Origin: a virus
Taxonomy: Duplodnaviria; Heunggongvirae; Uroviricota; Caudoviricetes
IMG/VR virus record: IMGVR_UViG_2703719368_000012
Coordinates: 1 to 11,884 of that record
Direction: 5' to 3' (one strand)
DNA: 11,884 nucleotides
Below the pieces are notes generated by a model. That model had not been told where the DNA came from. It did not search any database and worked only from the letters and a program-made list of their open reading frames with translations. Each line of letters opens with the position of its first letter. Position 1 is the first letter of the stretch. The translations under genes and the position numbers were made by a program. This document shows positions 2,437 through 11,852 of the stretch, piece by piece.

Positions 2437-2628
2437 TTAAAGTCCTGCCGGTATTTCGTTATTATTAGTGTGAGTAGTTTTATCTACCGGATAACAGTTA
2501 CCGGGAATTTTTTGTTCTGCTGCTGCAGCCATGCATTCTTTCATTGAACCGTATAAGCCAGTCACCAGCTCAAGAGATTCGCCGGAAACAAGATAAACTG
2601 TCAGAACGAGTGCAAATGTTGTATTCAT
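2437..2628 (-). CDS. Small hypothetical prophage protein, 63 aa, hydrophobic N-terminus (possible signal peptide or membrane anchor)
   Basis: ORF MNTTFALVLTVYLVSGESLELV...; AAGGA about 9 nt upstream of the ATG; its start overlaps the upstream gene stop in an ATGA arrangement (2625-2628), suggesting translational coupling. Confidence 0.5.
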   Translation of the reverse strand: MNTTFALVLTVYLVSGESLELVTGLYGSMKECMAAAAEQKIPGNCYPVDKTTHTNNNEIPAGL

Positions 2629-2813
2629 TGTTTATATCCTTTTTGCAGCAGGTCCAGACGAGCCAGCATTGAAGGAATGCATACTTCATTTAACAGGTCC
2701 TGCTCGAGTTTTCTCTGCTTAATGGCGTCTTCAATAAATGTTTTGTCTCCAGTGATAACGCCAATTTCGAAACGAAGTTCAGACGTGCTGGCATTACATG
2801 ATAACTTTTCCAT
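2625..2813 (-). CDS. Small early-left protein, possibly Kil-like host cell division inhibitor (62 aa)
   Basis: Internal ATG at 2811-2813 is preceded by GAGGA about 8 nt upstream; the longer track ORF to 2921 has no comparable RBS. Product MEKLSCNASTSELRFEIGVITGDKTFIEDAIKQ... loosely resembles lambda Kil (FIGDEKMFREAV) in my recollection; size and position between exonuclease and the distal early genes fit a kil-type gene. Confidence 0.45.
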   Translation of the reverse strand: MEKLSCNASTSELRFEIGVITGDKTFIEDAIKQRKLEQDLLNEVCIPSMLARLDLLQKGYKQ

Positions 2814-3386
2814 TATCGCGTCCTCAACAATGAATTTTGTGATGCGGTGCCTGGTGCCTCCAGGTGACGTTAACCAGTTAACAATTAACGCCGGATACAG
2901 AGCATTCTCGTTACTCAGCAAATGACCGCTTTACCGATTTAACTGTTCCGCGTGCGCTGAGCCGCATTCACCGCATCACAAAATTCACTTTTAAAAAAGG
3001 GCGGCAGAGCAGTTACGGAGTAAAACTGATACCGCCAAATGTCACCAGAATATTGATAACAGAGGGCGTTGCAGCGGGGTTGTCACTTAAGCGTATGGTC
3101 AACCTGACAACCCGGTGTCCTCAACGGGGAAAGAATAACCCCGCCATACTTACCGCCGCGCCATTTCGCGGATTGCCACAACCGGAAGCGCACGGTCGAA
3201 TTAAATTTAACGACGGCTCTAAGGGAGAAGGACTTCGCCGTGCACTTTCGTGTTATGCCCTGACTTTTCAGGGATATATCCTTTCAGTAAACTGTCAGTG
3301 CCGGATTCTTATCTGTGTCCGGCGCACGACCACACGTAGCAGCGTGTTGGTCTCCATTTTTAATTCAGCCCTTAATGGAGGATAAA

Positions 3387-4621: not shown

Positions 4622-4661
4622 TATGTAATCTACAATTAAAAACTGTTTTTGTGTCAACAGT
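4622..4661. promoter_or_regulatory. OL-like operator palindrome with embedded leftward (pL-like) promoter
   Basis: Perfect inverted repeat, 16-bp arms (4622-4637 and 4646-4661, AATTAAAAACTGTT / AACAGTTTTTAATT core) with an 8-bp spacer. On the minus strand the spacer and arm contain a consensus TTGACA (plus-strand 4643-4648). The unit is near-identical to the palindrome at 5667-5705. Confidence 0.5.
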
Positions 4662-4671
4662 TTTTAATTGT

Positions 4672-4694
4672 TGTTTTGGGCAAAAAAATCCCTC
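4672..4694 (-). terminator. Rho-independent terminator ending the repressor-antitoxin-toxin transcription unit
   Basis: On the minus strand: stem TCCCTC/GAGGGA (4679-4684 and 4689-4694) with a GAAA-type tetraloop, followed by a T7 run (plus-strand A7 at 4672-4678); lies 30-50 nt downstream of the toxin stop at 4723. Confidence 0.6.
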
Positions 4695-4722
4695 GAAAGA
4701 GGGAGTATGAAAATTGTTCAAC

Positions 4723-5010
4723 TCAGATAGAGAAGGGAAATTGTCGCCGAGAATGTGTCACGCTTACAATCTCAATGCTTGAAGCAGCTACTCTGTACAG
4801 GATTATGTAGTTAGGGTGGGTCACGATCTCTCTCAATCCAGAAACCCGTTCGCTTGGTGGATATAAGTACGGATGCTCAGATAGAGGTAATACCGATGTT
4901 TCAATGCGTATTTTTAGTCTACGTGCTGCCGGTGGGTTCTCCTTGGCGATGTAAGTTATGATCTGGCGCAAATCATCGCGAGCAGACGGTAGCCATAAAA
5001 TGGGTAACAT
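4723..5010 (-). CDS. Type II toxin, ParE/RelE family (95 aa)
   Basis: Product MLPILWLPSARDDLRQIITYIAKENPPAARRLKIRIETSVLPLSEHPYLYPPSERVSGLREIVTHPNYIILYRVAASSIEIVSVTHSRRQ carries the ParE/RelE signature pattern (W..A..DL..I..YI, GLRE, YII.YR, V.H..R). Its start overlaps the upstream small gene stop by 1 nt (TAATG). Confidence 0.7.
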   Translation of the reverse strand: MLPILWLPSARDDLRQIITYIAKENPPAARRLKIRIETSVLPLSEHPYLYPPSERVSGLREIVTHPNYIILYRVAASSIEIVSVTHSRRQFPFSI

Positions 5011-5201
5011 TACTCGCTCTTGTTAGTTACAGCAATTTGAGCAATAAGATTTTCCATTTCAGCCATTACCTCGTCATGTGGAATTGCGGGGCGAGTGTCT
5101 GCAAGGCTTGACGTTACTTTAGTGCGCAACCATTCGTTGTAACTGTTTTCTTGTTCGGTAGTTTCGAATTCTGAAACTATCGGAGAAAGGGCTGTACCCA
5201 T
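5010..5201 (-). CDS. Putative cognate antitoxin of the ParE/RelE-family toxin (63 aa)
   Basis: ATG at 5199-5201 with GAGGAG 5 nt upstream; small acidic product (MGTALSPIVSEFETTEQENSYNEWLRTKVTSSLADTRPAIPHDEVMAEMENLIAQIAVTNKSE); immediately upstream of and overlapping the toxin gene in the canonical antitoxin-first order. Confidence 0.6.
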   Translation of the reverse strand: MGTALSPIVSEFETTEQENSYNEWLRTKVTSSLADTRPAIPHDEVMAEMENLIAQIAVTNKSE

Positions 5202-5228
5202 GGCATAACTCCTCTTCTTGTACTGTGG

Positions 5229-5630
5229 TCACGCCCGGCGGCTTTTTTGTGCCGCCAGCCACCTAGCAATGGTTTCTTCCATTGATTTTTTCTTGTCTTT
5301 GATTTCTTGAAGCATTTTTTCTTGGTCTTCCTCAGGAAACGCACTAAAAGCTTGGAGCAGTTCGCGTTGGCGAGGACCAATTTTCATCGTGTCAGGGGTG
5401 AAAATTTGCTCACACTCTTCAGGAGGCAATAAAAACCAATGCAATGGATGCCCTGAAACCTCAACCAGTTTATCCAAACTTGAGGCTTTAGGTGTAGCCT
5501 TACCGCTGACCCATTGTTGAACAGTTTGTTGTGTCACACCAATTCTACGGGCAAGCTCAGCCTGGCTCCATCCAGTTTCCTGAAGAAGCTTGCTGATTCT
5601 GTACATAGATACTTCTAGGGCGCTCATCAT
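5229..5630 (-). CDS. Prophage repressor-like HTH (XRE/Cro-CI family) DNA-binding protein, about 133 aa, no peptidase domain
   Basis: HTH signature SQAELARRIGVTQQTVQQWVSGKATPK; transcribed divergently from the cro-like gene across the operator region at 5631-5738. ATG at 5630 has no Shine-Dalgarno (possibly leaderless); an alternative ATG at 5606 gives 125 aa. Confidence 0.7.
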   Translation of the reverse strand: MMSALEVSMYRISKLLQETGWSQAELARRIGVTQQTVQQWVSGKATPKASSLDKLVEVSGHPLHWFLLPPEECEQIFTPDTMKIGPRQRELLQAFSAFPEEDQEKMLQEIKDKKKSMEETIARWLAAQKSRRA

Positions 5631-5666
5631 TATTCAATTTTACAGGTAAATACTGTTAAAAGCATC

Positions 5667-5705
5667 ACAATAAAAAACTGTTGATTGCATACAGTTTTTT
5701 ATTGT
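5667..5705. promoter_or_regulatory. OR-like operator palindrome with divergent promoters (rightward pR-like; repressor promoter on the opposite strand)
   Basis: Inverted repeat with 15-bp arms (5667-5681 ACAATAAAAAACTGT and 5691-5705 ACAGTTTTTTATTGT), 9-bp spacer containing TTGATT; an extra ACTGTT half-site at 5651-5656; candidate -10 TATAGT at 5716-5721 ahead of the GGAGG RBS and ATG at 5739. Confidence 0.55.
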
Positions 5706-5738
5706 AGGCTTTGCTTATAGTTTTTAGAGGAGGGCAAA

Positions 5739-6011
5739 ATGCTAGATAGCACTCGCGAAAAAATTAGGCAGAAATACACTCAGGCTGAAATAGGTCGTTA
5801 TATGGGGGTCGCTCAACAGACTGTTTGGCAATGGTTTAGCTTTGGCGTTCCCCCAAAGCAGGTAATTCCGTTATGCCAACTAATGAAGTGGGAAGTTACC
5901 CCGCATGAAATCCGCCCAGATATTTATCCTAACCCAACCGACGGTTTACCTGTTGGATGTAAGGTTAACACATCAAATGCGCCGGAGTTGATTCATGAAA
6001 ATCAAGCATGA
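5739..6011 (+). CDS. ydaS: Cro-like HTH regulator, YdaS family (90 aa)
   Basis: ATG at 5739 with GGAGG 8 nt upstream; HTH AEIGRYMGVAQQTVWQW and a C-terminal ...EVTPHEIRPDI motif recalling the YdaS-family ELRPD motif; first gene of the rightward operon. Confidence 0.7.
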   Translation: MLDSTREKIRQKYTQAEIGRYMGVAQQTVWQWFSFGVPPKQVIPLCQLMKWEVTPHEIRPDIYPNPTDGLPVGCKVNTSNAPELIHENQA

Positions 6012-6420
6012 ACACATCCGCATGGCGATGAATGCCTGGGCGCATCCGGACGGCGAAAAAGTACCGGCTGCGAAAATTACCAAAGCGTATTTCGAGCTGG
6101 GAATGACGTTCCCGGAACTGTATGACGACAGCCATCCGGAAGCCATGGCTCGCAATACTCAGAAAATTTTCCGCTGGGTGGAGAAAGACACTCCTGATGC
6201 GGTTAAAAAAATTCAGGCGTTGTTACCAGCGATCGAAAAAGCGATGCCGCCTCCGCTGGTGGCCCGAATGCGCAGCCACAGTTCCGCTTATTTTCGGGAG
6301 TTGGTAGAGACGAAGGAACGGCTGGTGAAAGATATTGATGATTTCGTTGCATCAGCGATCGTTCTGTTCGATCAGATGAATCGTGGTGGCCCGGCAGGAA
6401 ACACTCTGGCTGTGCATTAA
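5995..6420 (+). CDS. ydaT: YdaT-like protein (141 aa), toxic-when-derepressed family in Rac
   Basis: Product begins MKIKHEHI, as I recall for Rac YdaT; start overlaps the end of the ydaS-like gene by 17 nt; GGAG about 8 nt upstream. Confidence 0.7.
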   Translation: MKIKHEHIRMAMNAWAHPDGEKVPAAKITKAYFELGMTFPELYDDSHPEAMARNTQKIFRWVEKDTPDAVKKIQALLPAIEKAMPPPLVARMRSHSSAYFRELVETKERLVKDIDDFVASAIVLFDQMNRGGPAGNTLAVH

Positions 6421-6433
6421 TTGGGTAATAAAT

Positions 6434-6943
6434 ATGAGTAATGACAAAAAATTGACACTGAGCGTTTACGAAAACAGTCCGCACATCTGGCGTGGCGGTT
6501 TATCTGATGTGGAGCTGGCAGAGTGGTTGATACATAAAGCTAATGCGCTGCTCTGGCGTTTGTCAGCCAGAGAACAGCGCAAGGAAACCAGAATAAAGCT
6601 GGCTGATGCAGAAGCGTGTGCCGGGCTTATTGAGGATTATACAAATCTTGGTATTTCTTCAGCAGAGAGTGATCCCATTCAGCCTCTGAGCAGGGAGTCA
6701 ATCCAGCACGCTGGTTGTATGGCACATCTTGTAACTGCTCGTCAACATGAGGTGGGTATTGGATCACTTCCGGCGGGATATTCGCTGATTCCAGAGCTGG
6801 TTGAAGCAAGAAAATCAGTTCAGAAAAAGAGAGATGACGCACTTCAATTATTGAGAGAGCACTATGGCGCGATACCAGAATGCGAACAGCGTCGATACCC
6901 TGAAGGTTATGAATGGATGCAGTCTCTTTTTGAAGTTCGCTAA
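6434..6943 (+). CDS. Hypothetical early-right protein (169 aa)
   Basis: ATG at 6434 (MSNDKKLTLSVYENSPHIWRGGLSDVELAEWL...); ordinary codon usage; the RBS is weak, and an alternative GTG at 6383 would overlap the ydaT-like gene. Confidence 0.55.
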   Translation: MSNDKKLTLSVYENSPHIWRGGLSDVELAEWLIHKANALLWRLSAREQRKETRIKLADAEACAGLIEDYTNLGISSAESDPIQPLSRESIQHAGCMAHLVTARQHEVGIGSLPAGYSLIPELVEARKSVQKKRDDALQLLREHYGAIPECEQRRYPEGYEWMQSLFEVR

Positions 6944-7160
6944 TCAATATGTCGAGACGAAGGTATGTTTCGGCGCGCAGCCAGGCTCTGTAATCCGGGA
7001 GCATTTCGGGGCTGTTACACCAGCGGTTTGTTGCTGCAACATTTAATACATGAGCCTGATAAAGGCTTTTCAAAAAATACATGTCGAACCTCCTCTGGTT
7101 CTGTCGATTGGGAACCACAGATTATATCCGGAGGAAGGTTCGGCACCAGATGAGGTAGCC

Positions 7161-8252
7161 ATGCGTGATTACGCAAAAGTTTCTCCGCGATTCTGGCTGG
7201 GAGAAACGGGGAGAGAACTTAGAAAGGCGGGTGCAGAAGCGCAAGTTGTTGCTTTTTACCTGATGACATCCCCTCACGCAAATATGCTGGGTTTGTATTA
7301 CCTGCCAGTTTTATACCTTGCTCATGAAACCGGGCTTGGTCTGGAAGGGGCTTCAAAGGGGCTTAAAAGGGCTGTTGAAGCTGGTTTTTGTAGCTATGAC
7401 CATGATGCAGAGATGGTCTGGGTCCATGAAATGGCAGCCTGGCAGGTTGGGGAAACGTTGAAGCCTGGCGATAACCGTTGTGCAGGTGTCAGGAATGAGT
7501 ATGCATCATTACCTGAAAACGCTTTTCTGTCAGTGTTTTACGACAGATATAAAACGGATTTCCATCTGGATGTGAGGCGGAATAATAGCCGAAATTCGGT
7601 AAGGGGCTTCGAAGGGGCTTTTAAGGGGCTTCGAAGCCAAGAACAGGAACAGGAGCAGGAGAAAGAACAGGAACAGGACAAAAACACTATGGTTCATGGC
7701 AAAAAAAACACCACGAACCAGGCAGGGGATGTTCAGACCGTCAATCCTGGTCAGCCAGCAGGCACGACACCGGAAGCCGATTCGGGCGCTGTGCAGCAGG
7801 TGATGACCGCAGGGTCGGAGCAATCACACCAACTGCAGCAGCCTGAAGCCGATTCCGCCATTCAGCGGGAAGCCGATCGGGTAGTCCCGGAAAGCACCGG
7901 GCAGTCTGTGGGACGAGTGGATTATCCGGATGTGTTCGAACAGGTCTGGCGGGAATACCCGTTGCGTGCTGGGGCAAACCCGAAGAAATCCGCTTTCAGT
8001 GCCTGGAAGGCCAGATTGCGCGAGGGGGTGCCACCAGAGACCATGCTGGATGGTGTGAGGCGTTACGCGAGATACCTGGCGGCGACCGGGAAAGCGGGAA
8101 CGGAATTTGTTCAGCGAGCGACGACGTTTTTTGGGCCGGACCGGAATTTTGAAAACCCCTGGTTGCTCCCGGTAAGCGGCACGAACAACCAGCGTTGTGT
8201 GAATCATATTTCTGAACCGGATACCGAAATTCCGCCGGGATTCAGGGGGTGA
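7161..8252 (+). CDS. ydaU: YdaU-like (DUF1376) putative replication initiation or replisome-organizer protein with an EQ-rich linker (363 aa from this start)
   Basis: ATG at 7161 with GAGGT 4 nt upstream. N-terminal region (FWLGETGRELRKAGAEAQVVAFYLMTSPHANMLGLYYLPVLYLAHETG...EMVWVHEMAAWQVGE) matches my recollection of Rac YdaU; it directly precedes the DnaC-like gene, as lambda O precedes P. The track ORF begins at ATG 7050 but has no RBS there. Confidence 0.75.
   Translation: MRDYAKVSPRFWLGETGRELRKAGAEAQVVAFYLMTSPHANMLGLYYLPVLYLAHETGLGLEGASKGLKRAVEAGFCSYDHDAEMVWVHEMAAWQVGETLKPGDNRCAGVRNEYASLPENAFLSVFYDRYKTDFHLDVRRNNSRNSVRGFEGAFKGLRSQEQEQEQEKEQEQDKNTMVHGKKNTTNQAGDVQTVNPGQPAGTTPEADSGAVQQVMTAGSEQSHQLQQPEADSAIQREADRVVPESTGQSVGRVDYPDVFEQVWREYPLRAGANPKKSAFSAWKARLREGVPPETMLDGVRRYARYLAATGKAGTEFVQRATTFFGPDRNFENPWLLPVSGTNNQRCVNHISEPDTEIPPGFRG
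7345..7375 (+). repeat. Iteron-like direct repeats, cluster 1 (AAGGGGCTT at 11-bp spacing)
   Basis: AAGGGGCTT at 7345-7353 and 7356-7364, with a degenerate third copy (AAAAGGGCT) at about 7367; exactly 11-bp periodicity. Confidence 0.45.
7601..7682 (+). repeat. Iteron-like direct repeats, cluster 2 (3 x AAGGGGCTT at 11-bp spacing) followed by a tandem hexanucleotide (GAACAG-like) array and an A-rich tract; candidate origin within the initiator gene
   Basis: AAGGGGCTT at 7601-7609, 7612-7620 and 7623-7631; then GAACAG GAACAG GAGCAG GAGAAA GAACAG GAACAG GACAAA (7641-7682), encoding the QEQEQEQEKEQEQDK linker; then A-rich sequence including an A8 run. Confidence 0.5.
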
Positions 8253-9026: not shown

Positions 9027-9614
9027 ATGGAAACCGTATCTGACGCACTGAAAGCACTGAAAAAAGCCTCTTCACATGTGGTGGCAGCTCGCCTTGGAAT
9101 CAGTCGTGAAGAGGCTGTCAACGAGCTGTGGGAACTCAAAATAAATGGCGTCGTTGATAAAACTGGTCACACCTGGTTTCTGGCTGGCGAAGGTGAATCC
9201 CGGGTAACCGAAGAGCGGCCAGTAAAATCTGAAGCACAGGATATGCTGACCGGGGAGGTCGAACAAAAAGTTACCGCAGACATGATGATTGAGTTTATCG
9301 GTCAGGATGGGGCTAAAACGTGTGAGGAACTGGCGGGTAAGTTCGGTGTCAGTACTCGCAAGGTTGCTTCCACGCTGGCGGTGGTAACCGCAACGGGGCG
9401 GCTGGCACGCGTTAATCAGAACGGTAAATTTCGTTACTGCATGCCGGGCGATAATTTACCAGCAGAGCCGAAAGCCGCGCTGGTAACGGAAAGTGATGGT
9501 AAGGCCTTTCCTCAGAACGTGTTGTATCGGAAAAGTGATTGCCGGAGGCGCTTATGGCAAAAGTATTTACACAGGAAGAGCGGGAAAAAATTAAAGGGCA
9601 GGTTGTTGAGCTAG
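9027..9614 (+). CDS. Hypothetical prophage protein with winged-helix-like repeats (possibly DUF1627-like), 195 aa
   Basis: ATG at 9027 with GGAGG 8 nt upstream; two similar HTH-like segments (ARLGISREEAVNELWELKINGVVDKTG and ELAGKFGVSTRKVASTLAVVTATGRLARV). The last 25 or so codons overlap the next gene and look low-quality. Confidence 0.6.
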   Translation: METVSDALKALKKASSHVVAARLGISREEAVNELWELKINGVVDKTGHTWFLAGEGESRVTEERPVKSEAQDMLTGEVEQKVTADMMIEFIGQDGAKTCEELAGKFGVSTRKVASTLAVVTATGRLARVNQNGKFRYCMPGDNLPAEPKAALVTESDGKAFPQNVLYRKSDCRRRLWQKYLHRKSGKKLKGRLLS

Positions 9615-10318: not shown

Positions 10319-11092
10319 TTATATGCTGAAATGAATAATGCTATTCCAGAGTGCAGCAGAGAAAGTCTCCTGATGATTGAGCTCTGGAAATTGTACAATA
10401 GAAAAATTACTGTATTTTTCTGTCAAAATATTTCTCAAAACAGATTCCGCTTTGATGGCTTCAGGATATAAAGATGCGGAGTAATCAAGGCTAAGATTTC
10501 CGTTAAGCAAGCATATACTTTTAGTGTGCTTTGATTCTGATATATCATCTTTAATTATCTTGATGATTCTTTCATTCTGCCATAGAAGTGATGGTGCAGA
10601 TATATAATAATAGTTAAAGCATGAATTATTTTTTAAGCAATCAAGCACAAAAATAGCACCTAGCGAGTGCCCCCATATACCGATTCTGGAACTGTTCGGA
10701 GCAATAGTACTAACCCATGGCATGATCTGAGTTAGTAATAATTCTCGGAAAGACTGGCTTCCTCCACCAGTAAAGTAGATCCATGCTGGTTTAGAGTTAT
10801 CAACAATAGCATTTTCACCATCAGGAGTATAATCGTAAGCACGGCGATGAATGCTAAGGTTATTCCAAGATTCATAACCAAGTGTAACTAACACTGGTGG
10901 ATTGGGTAGTGCATCAATAACAGGCAGAATATCAGAAATGTAATTGTTGGCACTATTCCCATCAAGTATATAAAGAGTTGCATTATTTTTTTTAATGTTT
11001 TTTGGAGTAAAAATACATATTTTATATTTGGTGTCATGGTTAATTGAGTTAAATATGCGTGTTTGACAATGAATGTCCATATGTTTAGTCAT
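10319..11092 (-). CDS. Alpha/beta-hydrolase esterase (PF00756-like putative esterase / siderophore-esterase fold), 257 aa, no signal peptide; AT-rich cargo (moron) gene
   Basis: Catalytic nucleophile elbow GHSLG; N-terminal LYILDGNS motif and IFTP strand typical of the Fes/IroE/esterase D family; GGAG-type RBS upstream of ATG 11092; local base composition is strongly AT-rich relative to the flanking prophage genes. Confidence 0.8.
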   Translation of the reverse strand: MTKHMDIHCQTRIFNSINHDTKYKICIFTPKNIKKNNATLYILDGNSANNYISDILPVIDALPNPPVLVTLGYESWNNLSIHRRAYDYTPDGENAIVDNSKPAWIYFTGGGSQSFRELLLTQIMPWVSTIAPNSSRIGIWGHSLGAIFVLDCLKNNSCFNYYYISAPSLLWQNERIIKIIKDDISESKHTKSICLLNGNLSLDYSASLYPEAIKAESVLRNILTEKYSNFSIVQFPELNHQETFSAALWNSIIHFSI

Positions 11093-11521: not shown

Positions 11522-11589
11522 AGCTGCGGGTGCTTGAGGCTATCTGCCTCGGGCATGAACACCAACGGCAGATAGAGAAAAGCCCCAGT

Positions 11590-11657
11590 TAACATTACGC
11601 GTCCTGCAAGACGCCTAACATTAATCTGAGGCTCAATCTATGAACGGCAAATCTAGG
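11590..11657 (-). ncRNA. sok: Putative Sok-like antisense RNA (type I antitoxin), approximate boundaries
   Basis: Minus-strand candidate -10 TAAGAG (plus-strand 11664-11669) sits opposite the start region of the upstream ORF, as in R1 sok; a hairpin GCGTC/GACGC (11599-11614) lies at the expected 3' end. Ends are not determinable from sequence alone. Confidence 0.35.
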
Positions 11658-11696
11658 TTAGCCTCTTACGTGCCGAAAGGCAAGGAGAAGCAGGCT

Positions 11697-11852
11697 ATGA
11701 AGCAGCAAAAGGCGATGTTAATCGCCCTGATCGTCATCTGTTTAACCGTCATAGTGACGGCACTGGTAACGAGGAAAGACCTCTGCGAGGTACGAGTCCG
11801 AACCGGCCAGACGGAGGTCGCTGTCTTCACAGCTTACGAACCTGAGGAGTAA
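11697..11852 (+). CDS. hok: Hok/Gef-family type I toxin (51 aa); an in-frame upstream ATG at 11640 gives a mok-like leader reading frame
   Basis: Product MKQQKAMLIALIVICLTVIVTALVTRKDLCEVRVRTGQTEVAVFTAYEPEE is a canonical Hok-family sequence (single TM helix, conserved Cys, C-terminal YEPEE), closely matching my recollection of HokD/RelF. The track ORF 11640-11852 extends the frame upstream by 19 codons. Confidence 0.85.
   Translation: MKQQKAMLIALIVICLTVIVTALVTRKDLCEVRVRTGQTEVAVFTAYEPEE

Follow-up and report, generated by a model that had tools for sequence, protein, structure and literature searches.

Probable Cro-like and CII-like roles for a YdaS-family and a YdaT-family protein in the immunity region of the defective Escherichia coli O157:H7 prophage Sp4

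The YdaS-family and YdaT-family genes found at positions 5739-6420 of the 11,884-nucleotide stretch of DNA analysed here (the window) very probably represent the rightward half of the immunity (lysis-lysogeny) switch of Sp4, a lambdoid defective prophage of E. coli O157:H7, and, by analogy with sister prophages, it appears highly probable that their products are Cro-like and CII-like regulators of a known switch design, not toxins. The window shares 99.99% identity with prophage Sp4 of strain Sakai, and its region 4700-6450 recurs with at least 99% identity in 441 records (about 440 complete E. coli genomes), many of them at 100%. In identical genomes the genes are annotated as 'transcriptional regulator', 'toxin YdaT family protein' or 'helix-turn-helix domain-containing protein', and the open reading frames of the immunity region can be regarded as real genes and not chance ORFs because the region is conserved and annotated in complete E. 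coli genomes. The switch is already known, Sp4 being a reference pathogen prophage and the function of the YdaS/YdaT/PaaR trio having been solved in a sister prophage between 2021 and 2025; what the window itself provides are the gene identities, the homologies, the operator and YdaT-box sequences and the identity with Sp4. The genes and elements of the region are the following:

5229-5630, minus strand: immunity repressor, 133 aa (Sakai ECs_1069), apparently of PaaR/DicA type, divergent from ydaS
5739-6011, plus strand: HTH protein of the YdaS family in the cro position, 90 aa (MLDSTREK...), Sakai ECs_1070
5995-6420, plus strand: YdaT, the candidate CII-equivalent regulator, 141 aa (MKIKHEHI...), Sakai ECs_1071, with a POU-like HTH and a C-terminal tetramerisation helix
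5988-6005, no strand: YdaT-box or OM operator, TTGATTCATGAAAATCAA, spanning the ydaT start codon (5995-5997) within the ydaS/ydaT overlap region
5010-5201, minus strand: PaaA-family antitoxin, 63 aa, no DNA-binding domain, 1-nt overlap with parE
4723-5010, minus strand: ParE-family toxin, 95 aa, paralogue of ParE2
4689-4704, minus strand: intrinsic-terminator-like hairpin, TCCCTCTTTCGAGGGA followed by T7, directly after parE

The rightward operon opens, divergently from the repressor gene, with a gene for a member of the YdaS family, as the original prediction had proposed for the protein in the cro position; Pfam YdaS_toxin (PF15943) is matched by residues 15-65 at 38.8 bits (cut-off 30), compared with 107.7 bits for Rac YdaS and 46.5 bits for CP-933P YdaS, and phrog_35 is matched at 9e-29. 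The suggested relationship to Rac YdaS was recovered by alignment (33% over 51 aa, E 7e-6), although at a distance at which Rac is no close comparator. BLASTP gave no match between the YdaS proteins of the window and CP-933P, the search of solved structures gave none for the YdaS-like protein at E≤0.01, and the cro-like protein of L003 shares 42% identity over 79 aa.

The identification of the second gene as YdaT-like is substantiated by matches to Pfam YdaT_toxin (PF06254, 38.9 bits, cut-off 21), to phrog_163, 'CII-like transcriptional activator' (4e-46), and, over the full length, to the PDB entries 3c4r (E 3.9e-83) and 8bt1 (E 1.4e-82), and the protein is 86% identical to the crystallised YdaT of Sp12/CP-933P. 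The Rac protein is again a true relative (32% identity over the full length, E 5e-16) but a distant comparator. The predicted order, with the cro-position gene followed by that in the cII position, holds, and so does the predicted 17-nt overlap between the two frames, which share the segment 5995-6011. The recognition-helix pair Arg60-Trp61 is present in the window protein (...QKIFR60W61VEKD), this arginine being Arg60 in CP-933P YdaT (PMC9986795) and R57 in Rac YdaT (PMC11879457).

The motif TTGATT-N6-AATCAA has a single exact match in the window, at 5988-6005, where 0.06 would be expected; this box is the same as that footprinted in CP-933P (PMC9986795), departs from the YdaT-box of Rac at 1 nt (ATGATT... 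versus TTGATT...; PMC11879457), and has a 22-nt core that is invariant over five loci. The overlap of the two genes is explained by the end of ydaS, whose last six codons (IHENQA*) run through this conserved box, a tail also present in the cro-like proteins of L003 and Sp11; it measures 17 nt in the window versus 4 nt in CP-933P, since the frame in which ydaS enters the box is not the same. In CP-933P, YdaT is a 222-symmetric tetramer acting on an inverted repeat, in contrast to CII, which reads a direct repeat (PMC9986795), and in Rac a reverse promoter located in ydaS and driving racR is activated through the YdaT-box, the Rac and CP-933P proteins being able to cross-react (PMC11879457). Tetramerisation, DNA binding and activation of a leftward promoter may be extrapolated from those proteins to the YdaT of the window, in which an automatic sigma-70 scan found no minus-strand promoter within ydaS that could be the YdaT-dependent one.

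The names under which these families are stored (Pfam retains 'Bacterial toxin YdaS/YdaT' and RefSeq 'toxin YdaT family protein') point instead to a host-killing toxin pair or a toxin-antitoxin module, with the repressor essential owing to both proteins, and the original prediction had transferred this toxicity from Rac. Two reports on Rac describe de-repression of ydaS/ydaT and loss of viability after racR silencing (PMC5700377, PMC5700373), Rac YdaT, when expressed, makes cells filament and die by activating host rcsA (PMC11879457), and PaaR2 and YdaS of CP-933P produce growth defects on prolonged over-expression (PMC8630535). The window proteins are, however, only about 32-33% identical to their Rac counterparts. 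The family and the gene order of the Rac comparison stand, but a transfer of the toxicity is doubtful, since the much closer YdaT of CP-933P showed no toxicity and the pair was shown there not to be a toxin-antitoxin module (PMC8630535). The structure of YdaT, moreover, is that of a DNA-binding tetramer, and its specific operator (PMC9986795) is present in the window, and, in the critique by Jobling, over-produced lambda CII is toxic too, yet is no toxin (PMC5917428). A toxin pair is hence very unlikely, and the database names, which mislead, are better read as Cro-like and CII-like regulators, the real toxin nearby being ParE.

The repressor combines an N-terminal HTH_3 domain (residues 13-58, 47.2 bits) with a conserved C-terminal helical region (about residues 88-133); its Pfam search returned HTH families only, with no Peptidase_S24 match at E≤0.01, solved structures were matched only through generic HTH domains such as those of 434 repressor and HipB, and the PADLOC defence-system models gave generic HTH matches for the repressor and none for the other nine proteins tested. 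The C-terminal S24 peptidase domain with its Ser/Lys dyad, which characterises the LexA/lambda-CI-type self-cleaving class, is thus missing from this 133-aa protein, in agreement both with the earlier claim for this locus and with the description of the Sp4 repressor published in 2009 (PMC2669165). The repressor lacks a peptidase domain, and the switch would therefore be uncoupled from RecA/SOS self-cleavage; the earlier deduction that induction does not proceed through RecA-stimulated self-cleavage agrees with the published work on Sp4 (PMC2669165).

Among characterised repressors, PaaR2 shows 42% identity over 98 aa (E 2e-20), with the likeness greatest over the last 45 residues and the C-terminus near-identical, the L003 repressor 47% over 87 aa, and DicA 28% over 111 aa in pairwise alignment (E 6e-12). 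The NCBIfam DicA subfamily model NF007257 aligns end to end with 51.5 bits, below its cut-off of 101, and the protein is, judged by its sequence, a distant DicA relative outside the DicA subfamily. The alignment with RacR, the repressor to which the original prediction had compared it, brought generic HTH similarity only (E 0.002): 18 of 53 residues match, all within the HTH, C-terminal similarity is absent and the lengths differ (133 vs 158 aa). A RacR-type identity was rejected, and these comparisons class the repressor as PaaR2/DicA-like, not RacR-like.

Two genes overlooked by the original prediction share the operon of the repressor. The PaaA protein matches Pfam PaaA2 (PF21217, 68.3 bits) and PaaA2 in PDB 3zbe (E 1.4e-20) and is 70% identical to Sp12 PaaA2, and the ParE protein matches Pfam ParE_toxin (PF05016, 63.5 bits) and ParE2 in PDB 5cw7_B (E 3e-36) and is 67% identical to Sp12 ParE2. 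With an HTH regulator homologous to PaaR2, a PaaA2-family antitoxin and a ParE toxin following one another on the minus strand, the arrangement is that of a three-component PaaR-PaaA-ParE operon, and the sequence identifies the repressor as its apparent first gene; the hairpin at 4689-4704 probably marks the end of the repressor-paaA-parE operon. Such a three-component toxin-antitoxin operon was reportedly described by Hallez in 2010, when a homologue of the present toxin-antitoxin genes is also said to have been noted. The genes at this locus are presumably those named paaR1/paaA1/parE1, one review using 'paaR1-paaA1-parE3', and we take Sp4 to be equivalent to CP-933M of strain EDL933. CP-933M is stated to carry a homologue of the CP-933P paaR2-paaA2-parE2 genes, among which ParE2 induces SOS and the parE2 locus provokes post-segregational killing as an addictive toxin-antitoxin system (PMC8630535). 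ParE toxicity, its neutralisation by PaaA and addiction may be extrapolated to Sp4 from the ParE2 system.

The control regions on both sides of the repressor operon contain the following elements:

5631-5738, no strand: divergent control region (OR), 108 bp between the repressor and ydaS
5681-5686 and 5705-5710, plus strand: putative PR, -35 TTGATT and -10 TAGGCT, assigned by eye and analogy
5729-5733, plus strand: Shine-Dalgarno sequence of ydaS, GGAGG
5642-5637, minus strand: -10 (TAAAAT) of a putative PRM, ending 6 nt before the repressor ATG (5630)
4627-4671, minus strand: OL/PL-like element, with a 40-bp palindrome at 4632-4671, arms ACAATTAAAAACTGTT / AACAGTTTTTAATTGT
4657-4652 and 4632-4627, minus strand: putative PL, -35 TTGACA and -10 TAGATT with a 19-nt spacer, hexamers read by eye

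OR contains a perfect palindrome of 39 bp (5667-5705) with 15-nt arms ACAATAAAAAACTGT / ACAGTTTTTTATTGT and a 9-nt spacer, flanked by partial repeats 25-26 bp apart (5648, 5673, 5699). Compared side by side, the OL palindrome is a near-copy of it with the same promoter-like layout, carrying exact AAAAACTGT half-sites at 4638 (plus strand) and 4657 (minus strand), and its position left of parE matches that of PL933P/OL in CP-933P (PMC8630535). The automatic sigma-70 scan found no consensus promoter in 5631-5738, and in both PR and PL, as proposed here, the spacer is 18-19 nt long and the -10 hexamer weak. The distance from the PRM -10 to the ATG is the same as in paaR2 (GATAAT, 6 nt, ATG), which is experimentally leaderless (PMC8630535), and this likeness suggests that the repressor mRNA from PRM is probably of the leaderless type. 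Promoter positions, leaderless translation and the pairing of proteins with sites at the Sp4 locus are thus proposals by analogy.

In CP-933P, PaaR2, YdaS and YdaT have been characterised as CI, Cro and CII analogues (Jurenas 2021, PMC8630535): footprints of PaaR2 and YdaS lie on OR, both proteins repress PR, PRM and PL, YdaT activates PRE, and the switch is bistable (PMC8630535), the YdaT structure and the OM operator having been described later (Prolic-Kalinsek 2023, PMC9986795). Following this model, the 133-aa PaaR/DicA-type repressor would play the CI role at Sp4, binding the palindromes OR (5667-5705) and OL (4632-4671) and thereby shutting off PR, with ydaS, ydaT and the replication genes, and PL, with the DicF/DicB operon described below, while a weak, probably leaderless PRM-type promoter would produce the repressor together with the PaaA antitoxin and the ParE toxin. 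These two genes would occupy the position of lambda rexA/rexB and may make the immunity region addictive. YdaS, in the Cro role, would be a small HTH protein competing for OR and OL DNA, giving a bistable switch, and YdaT, in the CII role, would bind as a tetrameric POU-like HTH protein to the YdaT-box on its own start codon and activate a leftward 'establishment' promoter whose transcript would run back across ydaS into the repressor operon. Only for CP-933P and Rac, the sister systems, have DNA binding, regulation and bistability been demonstrated, and the literature search found no experiment on the Sp4 proteins themselves.

The architecture is identical to that of CP-933P (Sp12), with repressor, PaaA and ParE leftward and ydaS, ydaT and replication genes rightward; besides the identities given above, with the repressor conserved in its C-terminal region, the likeness includes the same YdaT-box at the ydaT start, the leaderless-type -10-to-ATG geometry and an OL/PL copy left of parE. 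The N-terminal HTH of the repressor differs (MMSALEV... vs MQKKE...), YdaS has no BLAST-detectable similarity, and the four 18-bp repeats of GTTTAGTAA type in the CP-933P operators contrast with the single 39-bp perfect palindrome with AAAAACTGT half-sites in the window. These differences indicate, at the sequence level, a different immunity specificity, and because YdaS, the HTH region of the repressor and the operators differ from CP-933P, the binding specificities of the Sp4 repressor and YdaS are extrapolations from no more than position and family. With its own operators and its heteroimmune pair of repressor and YdaS, Sp4 would add only one more example of the known design.

Rac of K-12 (Krishnamurthi 2017; Bindal 2017; Wons 2025, PMC11879457) shares the gene order, a YdaT homologous over its full length, a YdaS with the PF15943 domain and a near-identical YdaT-box overlapping the ydaT ATG, although RacR shares only the HTH, PaaA/ParE genes are absent, and ydaS and ydaT do not overlap. 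The likeness to lambda cI-rexA-rexB/cro-cII lies in the divergent PRM/PR with shared operators, the OL/PL copy, the accessory genes co-transcribed with the repressor, the leaderless repressor mRNA (putative in the window) and a second rightward regulator that, from within its own operon, switches on synthesis of the repressor (by analogy for the window), whereas sequence similarity to CI, Cro or CII is absent and the window repressor lacks the S24 domain.

Sp4 is defective in excisionase, recombination, terminase and head genes, is induced neither spontaneously nor by mitomycin C on its own according to the 2009 study, and is amplified only through regional replication of the neighbouring Sp5 (PMC2669165), and the exonuclease gene and DUF1627 gene of the window have suffered two internal deletions that break the frame. 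Since the prophage is defective, some of the circuit might be silent. It seems very improbable, however, that the whole switch is a decayed, transcriptionally inert relic devoid of present regulatory function, since all five ORFs of the immunity region are intact and 100% identical over hundreds of genomes that belong to several serotypes, neither the operators nor the YdaT-box show any flaw, and the equally defective CP-933P keeps a working bistable switch (PMC8630535).

The leftward operon, downstream of the OL/PL palindrome, carries two further genes as cargo, both division inhibitors that the original prediction had overlooked:

2999-3050, minus strand: DicF sRNA (Rfam DicF, 76.9 bits)
2625-2813, minus strand: dicB-like division inhibitor, annotated dicB in the identical Sakai and TR01 loci

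In Qin, DicA is needed to hold dicB off. The Qin dicA/dicC-ydfX region of K-12 resembles the window in its short, peptidase-less and distantly homologous repressor, in a leftward operon of the type DUF1391-ydfB-...-DicF-dicB, and in a cro-like gene overlapping a YdaT-like gene by 17 nt (tail NNENHS* versus IHENQA*), and differs in that DicC is dissimilar to the window YdaS, ydfX is a truncated YdaT remnant with a degenerate box, and no toxin-antitoxin pair lies beside the repressor, relBE being elsewhere. It is a substantial possibility, falling somewhat short of an even chance, that any harm from repressor loss would come mainly from the PL operon with DicF/DicB, from runaway replication or from PaaA/ParE imbalance. 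The position of DicF and dicB downstream of OL/PL, the distant homology between the repressor and DicA, the replication genes directly after ydaT and the activities of ParE2 and its locus (PMC8630535) agree with it; against it, PL activity and its control by the repressor are putative at Sp4, the promoter having been assigned by eye, and Rac genetics implicated ydaS/ydaT themselves (PMC5700377, PMC5700373). DicF/DicB would be at least as likely as YdaS/YdaT to sicken the host after repressor loss.

The 22-nt YdaT-box/ydaT-start segment GATTCATGAAAATCAAGCATGA is invariant even where the YdaT proteins are only about 30% identical, and it coincides with a very sharp mosaic boundary: in the partial matches sampled homology started at 5984-5990 in 44/44 and ended at the ydaT stop (6418-6420) in 42/44, the remaining two ending about 17 nt earlier. 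Tentatively, and with considerable doubt, the segment might, beyond its use as an operator, serve as a recombination 'linker' for immunity-module swaps and as a shared trans-acting node for YdaT. If it were such a node, the YdaT of one resident prophage would turn on repressor synthesis in all the others, and the lysogeny decisions of heteroimmune prophages would be coupled. Matches at megablast level (about 82-100% identity) place a ydaT cassette of this kind in 3031 of 5426 E. coli genomes, often in several copies per genome and joined to many unrelated cro-like genes.

In the window, O/DnaC-like replication genes lie downstream of ydaT, separated from it by an insert of about 740 bp with an ECs1072-family gene, by which the locus also differs from CP-933P. 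Within this stretch, the plus-strand ORF 6434-6943, a candidate for the next gene after ydaT, matches phrog_8304 end to end, and the overlapping minus-strand ORF 6627-7082, which is the one annotated in RefSeq, matches the NCBIfam ECs1072 model at 105.7 bits (cut-off 70).

The window aligns over its whole length, at 99.99%, to Sp4, a prophage of E. coli O157:H7 Sakai adjoining yccA. The feature is an immunity switch of a prophage, known before, and three ORFs are concerned:

5739-6011 (+), YdaS-like ORF, 90 codons, ATG start with an upstream GGAGG Shine-Dalgarno sequence
5995-6420 (+), YdaT ORF, 141 codons, starting MKIKHEHI and overlapping the YdaS-like ORF by 17 nt
5229-5630 (-), repressor ORF, 133 codons, divergent from ydaS/ydaT

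In Sakai, the repressor, YdaS-like and YdaT genes are named ECs_1069 ('phage repressor protein'), ECs_1070 and ECs_1071, and those downstream of the repressor ECs_1068 and ECs_1067. At 99% identity or more, region 4700-6450 recurs in 441 complete E. coli records (O157:H7, O26, O103 and others), and 485 E. coli genomes carry the greater part of it. Compared with Sp4 of Sakai, 64 nt within the exonuclease gene (ECs_1057) are missing from the window at 1697-1698, and 261 nt within the DUF1627 gene (ECs_1075) at 9516-9517; the dinucleotide AA replaces each deleted stretch, and the reading frame is broken in both. Neither deletion was seen among the listed best-matching complete E. coli genomes, in which each junction aligns as two pieces only.

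The ORF table, the raw sequence and Pfam confirm the original prediction of a YdaS-family gene followed, with a 17-nt overlap, by a YdaT-like gene, the two products matching YdaS_toxin (PF15943; 38.8 bits, cut-off 30) and YdaT_toxin (38.9 bits, cut-off 21). The PHROGs classes of the three ORFs, in the order listed above, are transcriptional repressor, CII-like transcriptional activator and transcriptional regulator. The 133-codon repressor matches helix-turn-helix (HTH) families only in Pfam, with no match to an S24 peptidase domain; Asadulghani et al. likewise found the peptidase domain absent from the Sp4 repressor, and saw no induction of Sp4, either spontaneous or by mitomycin C, but only its co-amplification by the neighbouring Sp5 (PMC2669165), in agreement with the proposed lack of a LexA-like peptidase and of RecA-mediated repressor autocleavage.

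The repressor gene is followed, in order and on one strand, by PaaA and ParE genes, a pair that had passed without mention:

5010-5201 (-), PaaA2-family antitoxin, 63 aa (PF21217, 68.3 bits; PDB 3zbe, E 1.4e-20)
4723-5010 (-), ParE toxin, 95 aa (PF05016, 63.5 bits; PDB 5cw7, ParE2, E 3e-36)
4689-4704, terminator-like hairpin after parE

This three-component regulator-antitoxin-toxin layout is common to the window and to paaR2-paaA2-parE2 of prophage CP-933P, and CP-933M, in the same strain, has been reported to carry a homologue (PMC8630535). The locus of Sp12, the Sakai equivalent of CP-933P, was retrieved and the window proteins were compared by BLASTP, with identities of 86% for YdaT, 70% for PaaA (PaaA2) and 67% for ParE (ParE2). 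The repressor is 42% identical to PaaR2 over 98 aa, the C-terminal 45 residues being near-identical and the N-terminal HTH different, and CP-933P YdaS gave no BLASTP match to the window YdaS-like protein, though both pass the PF15943 cut-off. As judged from protein sequence, the window and the CP-933P immunity region are therefore sisters, and heteroimmune. In CP-933P, the 97-bp divergent region is footprinted by both PaaR2 and YdaS, which repress PRM, PR and a PL left of the TA genes; PRM is activated at low PaaR2 levels, bistability has been shown for the locus, PaaR2, which is without the peptidase motif, shows no response to mitomycin C, and YdaT has no action on PRM, PR or PL, and turns on a leftward promoter, at the border of ydaS and ydaT, that would otherwise be silent (PMC8630535). 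CP-933P YdaT forms a tetramer and has a POU-like HTH domain, Arg60 being the sole invariant recognition-helix residue of YdaT, and the operator that it binds, TTGATT-N6-AATCAA, lies at the ydaS end (PMC9986795).

The 108-bp control region (OR) contains a perfect palindrome at 5667-5705 with 15-nt arms, flanked by partial repeats at 25-26 bp intervals, and a near-copy (OL) is situated at 4632-4671, just past the parE terminator; read leftward, each base of OL aligns with its counterpart in OR across ACAAT(A/T)AAAAACTGTTGA and ACAGTTTTT(T/A)ATTGTAG. Both copies carry a -35-like TTGAnn hexamer inside the palindrome spacer and a -10-like TAGnnT hexamer 18-19 nt downstream of it; since a consensus promoter scan returned nothing at these sites, it is from the hexamers that we infer a putative PR and PL with their operators. 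No Shine-Dalgarno sequence precedes the repressor ATG, and a TAAAAT hexamer ends 6 nt before it, a spacing identical to that between GATAAT and ATG in paaR2 of CP-933P, whose mRNA is experimentally leaderless (PMC8630535).

The window has a single predicted YdaT-box, TTGATTCATGAAAATCAA, at 5988-6005, whose spacer contains the ydaT ATG, and 22 nucleotides at the ydaS/ydaT junction, GATTCATGAAAATCAAGCATGA, are invariant in an alignment of the window, Sp12, Sakai Sp11, another E. coli locus (L003) and the K-12 prophage Rac. The Rac box is nearly identical, overlaps the ydaT ATG and drives a reverse promoter, located in ydaS, by which racR expression is increased, and the Rac and CP-933P YdaT proteins cross-react on one another's boxes (PMC11879457). 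The 17-nt overlap arises because window ydaS reads through the box in one frame, with the tail …IHENQA before the stop codon; CP-933P ydaS enters it in another frame, with a 4-nt overlap. The IHENQA tail recurs in the cro-like genes of Sp11 and L003, which are unrelated, and dicC/ydfX of the Qin prophage also overlap by 17 nt, but with a degenerate box. The overlap noticed earlier is therefore a by-product of the operator. In one Rac-type locus, the match is restricted to 35 nt around the YdaT-box, at 100% identity.

The query is matched by 3031 of the 5426 E. coli genomes, mostly via ydaT alone. In a breakpoint sample taken across the spread of matches, the left edge of the partial ones fell at window 5984-5990, a few bases at most from the YdaT-box, in 44 of 44, and the right edge at the stop codon (6418-6420) in 42 and at ~6401 in the other two, while the upstream neighbours were annotated as YdaS-family, Cro/CI-family, AlpA-family or generic HTH regulators. 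These edges and the varied upstream genes therefore define ydaT as a discrete, exchangeable cassette, with its own operator as the left edge, the one point here that is mildly new. In Sp11 (L004 3556-4937), the partner of a ydaT with 80% identity is a P22_Cro-family protein ending in IHENQA; the 112-aa Sp11 'repressor' appears to be the peptidase-like C-terminal part only, and was listed as disrupted by Asadulghani et al. (PMC2669165).

Alignment with Rac gave 32% identity for YdaT (full length, E 5e-16) and 33% over 51 residues for YdaS (E 7e-6), so that the window pair seems distantly related to Rac YdaS/YdaT, as suggested originally; the analogy of the repressor with RacR did not hold, and its identification as RacR was rejected, the match being limited to the HTH (18/53 residues, E 0.002). 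Qin DicA is a distant relative of the repressor (28% over 111 aa, E 6e-12), and the NCBIfam DicA model aligns to it end to end, with a score below the cut-off. The putative PL leads into DUF1391/ydfB genes, DicF and dicB, the last two lying likewise in the leftward operon of Qin:

2999-3050 (-), DicF antisense sRNA (Rfam RF00039, 76.9 bits)
2625-2813 (-), dicB-like division-inhibitor gene, in the leftward operon

Loss of the repressor would de-repress ydaS-ydaT, the O-like/DnaC-like replication genes and the DicF/DicB division inhibitors, and would upset the PaaA/ParE operon as well. The Rac-derived view of YdaS/YdaT as a toxin pair is the least likely reading, because the 86%-identical CP-933P YdaT is non-toxic, YdaS/YdaT there being stated to 'not constitute a TA system' (PMC8630535), and because the toxicity of Rac YdaT, which acts via the host rcsA promoter (PMC11879457), is a regulatory side-effect. 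By analogy with Qin, any filamentation would more readily be put down to DicB/DicF. Of the earlier interpretation, the families and RecA-independence thus stand, and the toxin framing and RacR analogy do not.

Between ydaT and the replication gene there is a ~740-bp insert (6434-7118) that CP-933P/Sp12 does not have, with two candidate genes that overlap and lie on opposite strands:

6434-6943 (+), candidate ORF, 169 aa (phrog_8304 end to end, E 4e-120)
6627-7082 (-), candidate ORF, 151 aa (NCBIfam 'ECs1072 family phage-associated protein', 105.7 bits), the one in RefSeq

The mechanical ORF of the O-like replication gene, 7050-8252 (+), exceeds the RefSeq gene (start 7161) by 37 codons; its PHROG alignments start at residue 38, and the last 24 C-terminal residues of its product resemble the DnaT end. 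Further rightward are:

10319-11092 (-), alpha/beta-hydrolase gene, 257 aa, on the opposite strand after the DUF977 gene
11528-11852 (+), hok/sok-type type I toxin-antitoxin locus (sok RNA RF01794, 105.6 bits)
11640-11852 (+), mok/hok-like ORF, 70 aa, within the hok/sok-type locus

The alpha/beta-hydrolase gene, which has no match in PADLOC, looks like a moron, and in the identical locus of TR01 the hok/sok-type element is annotated hokD.
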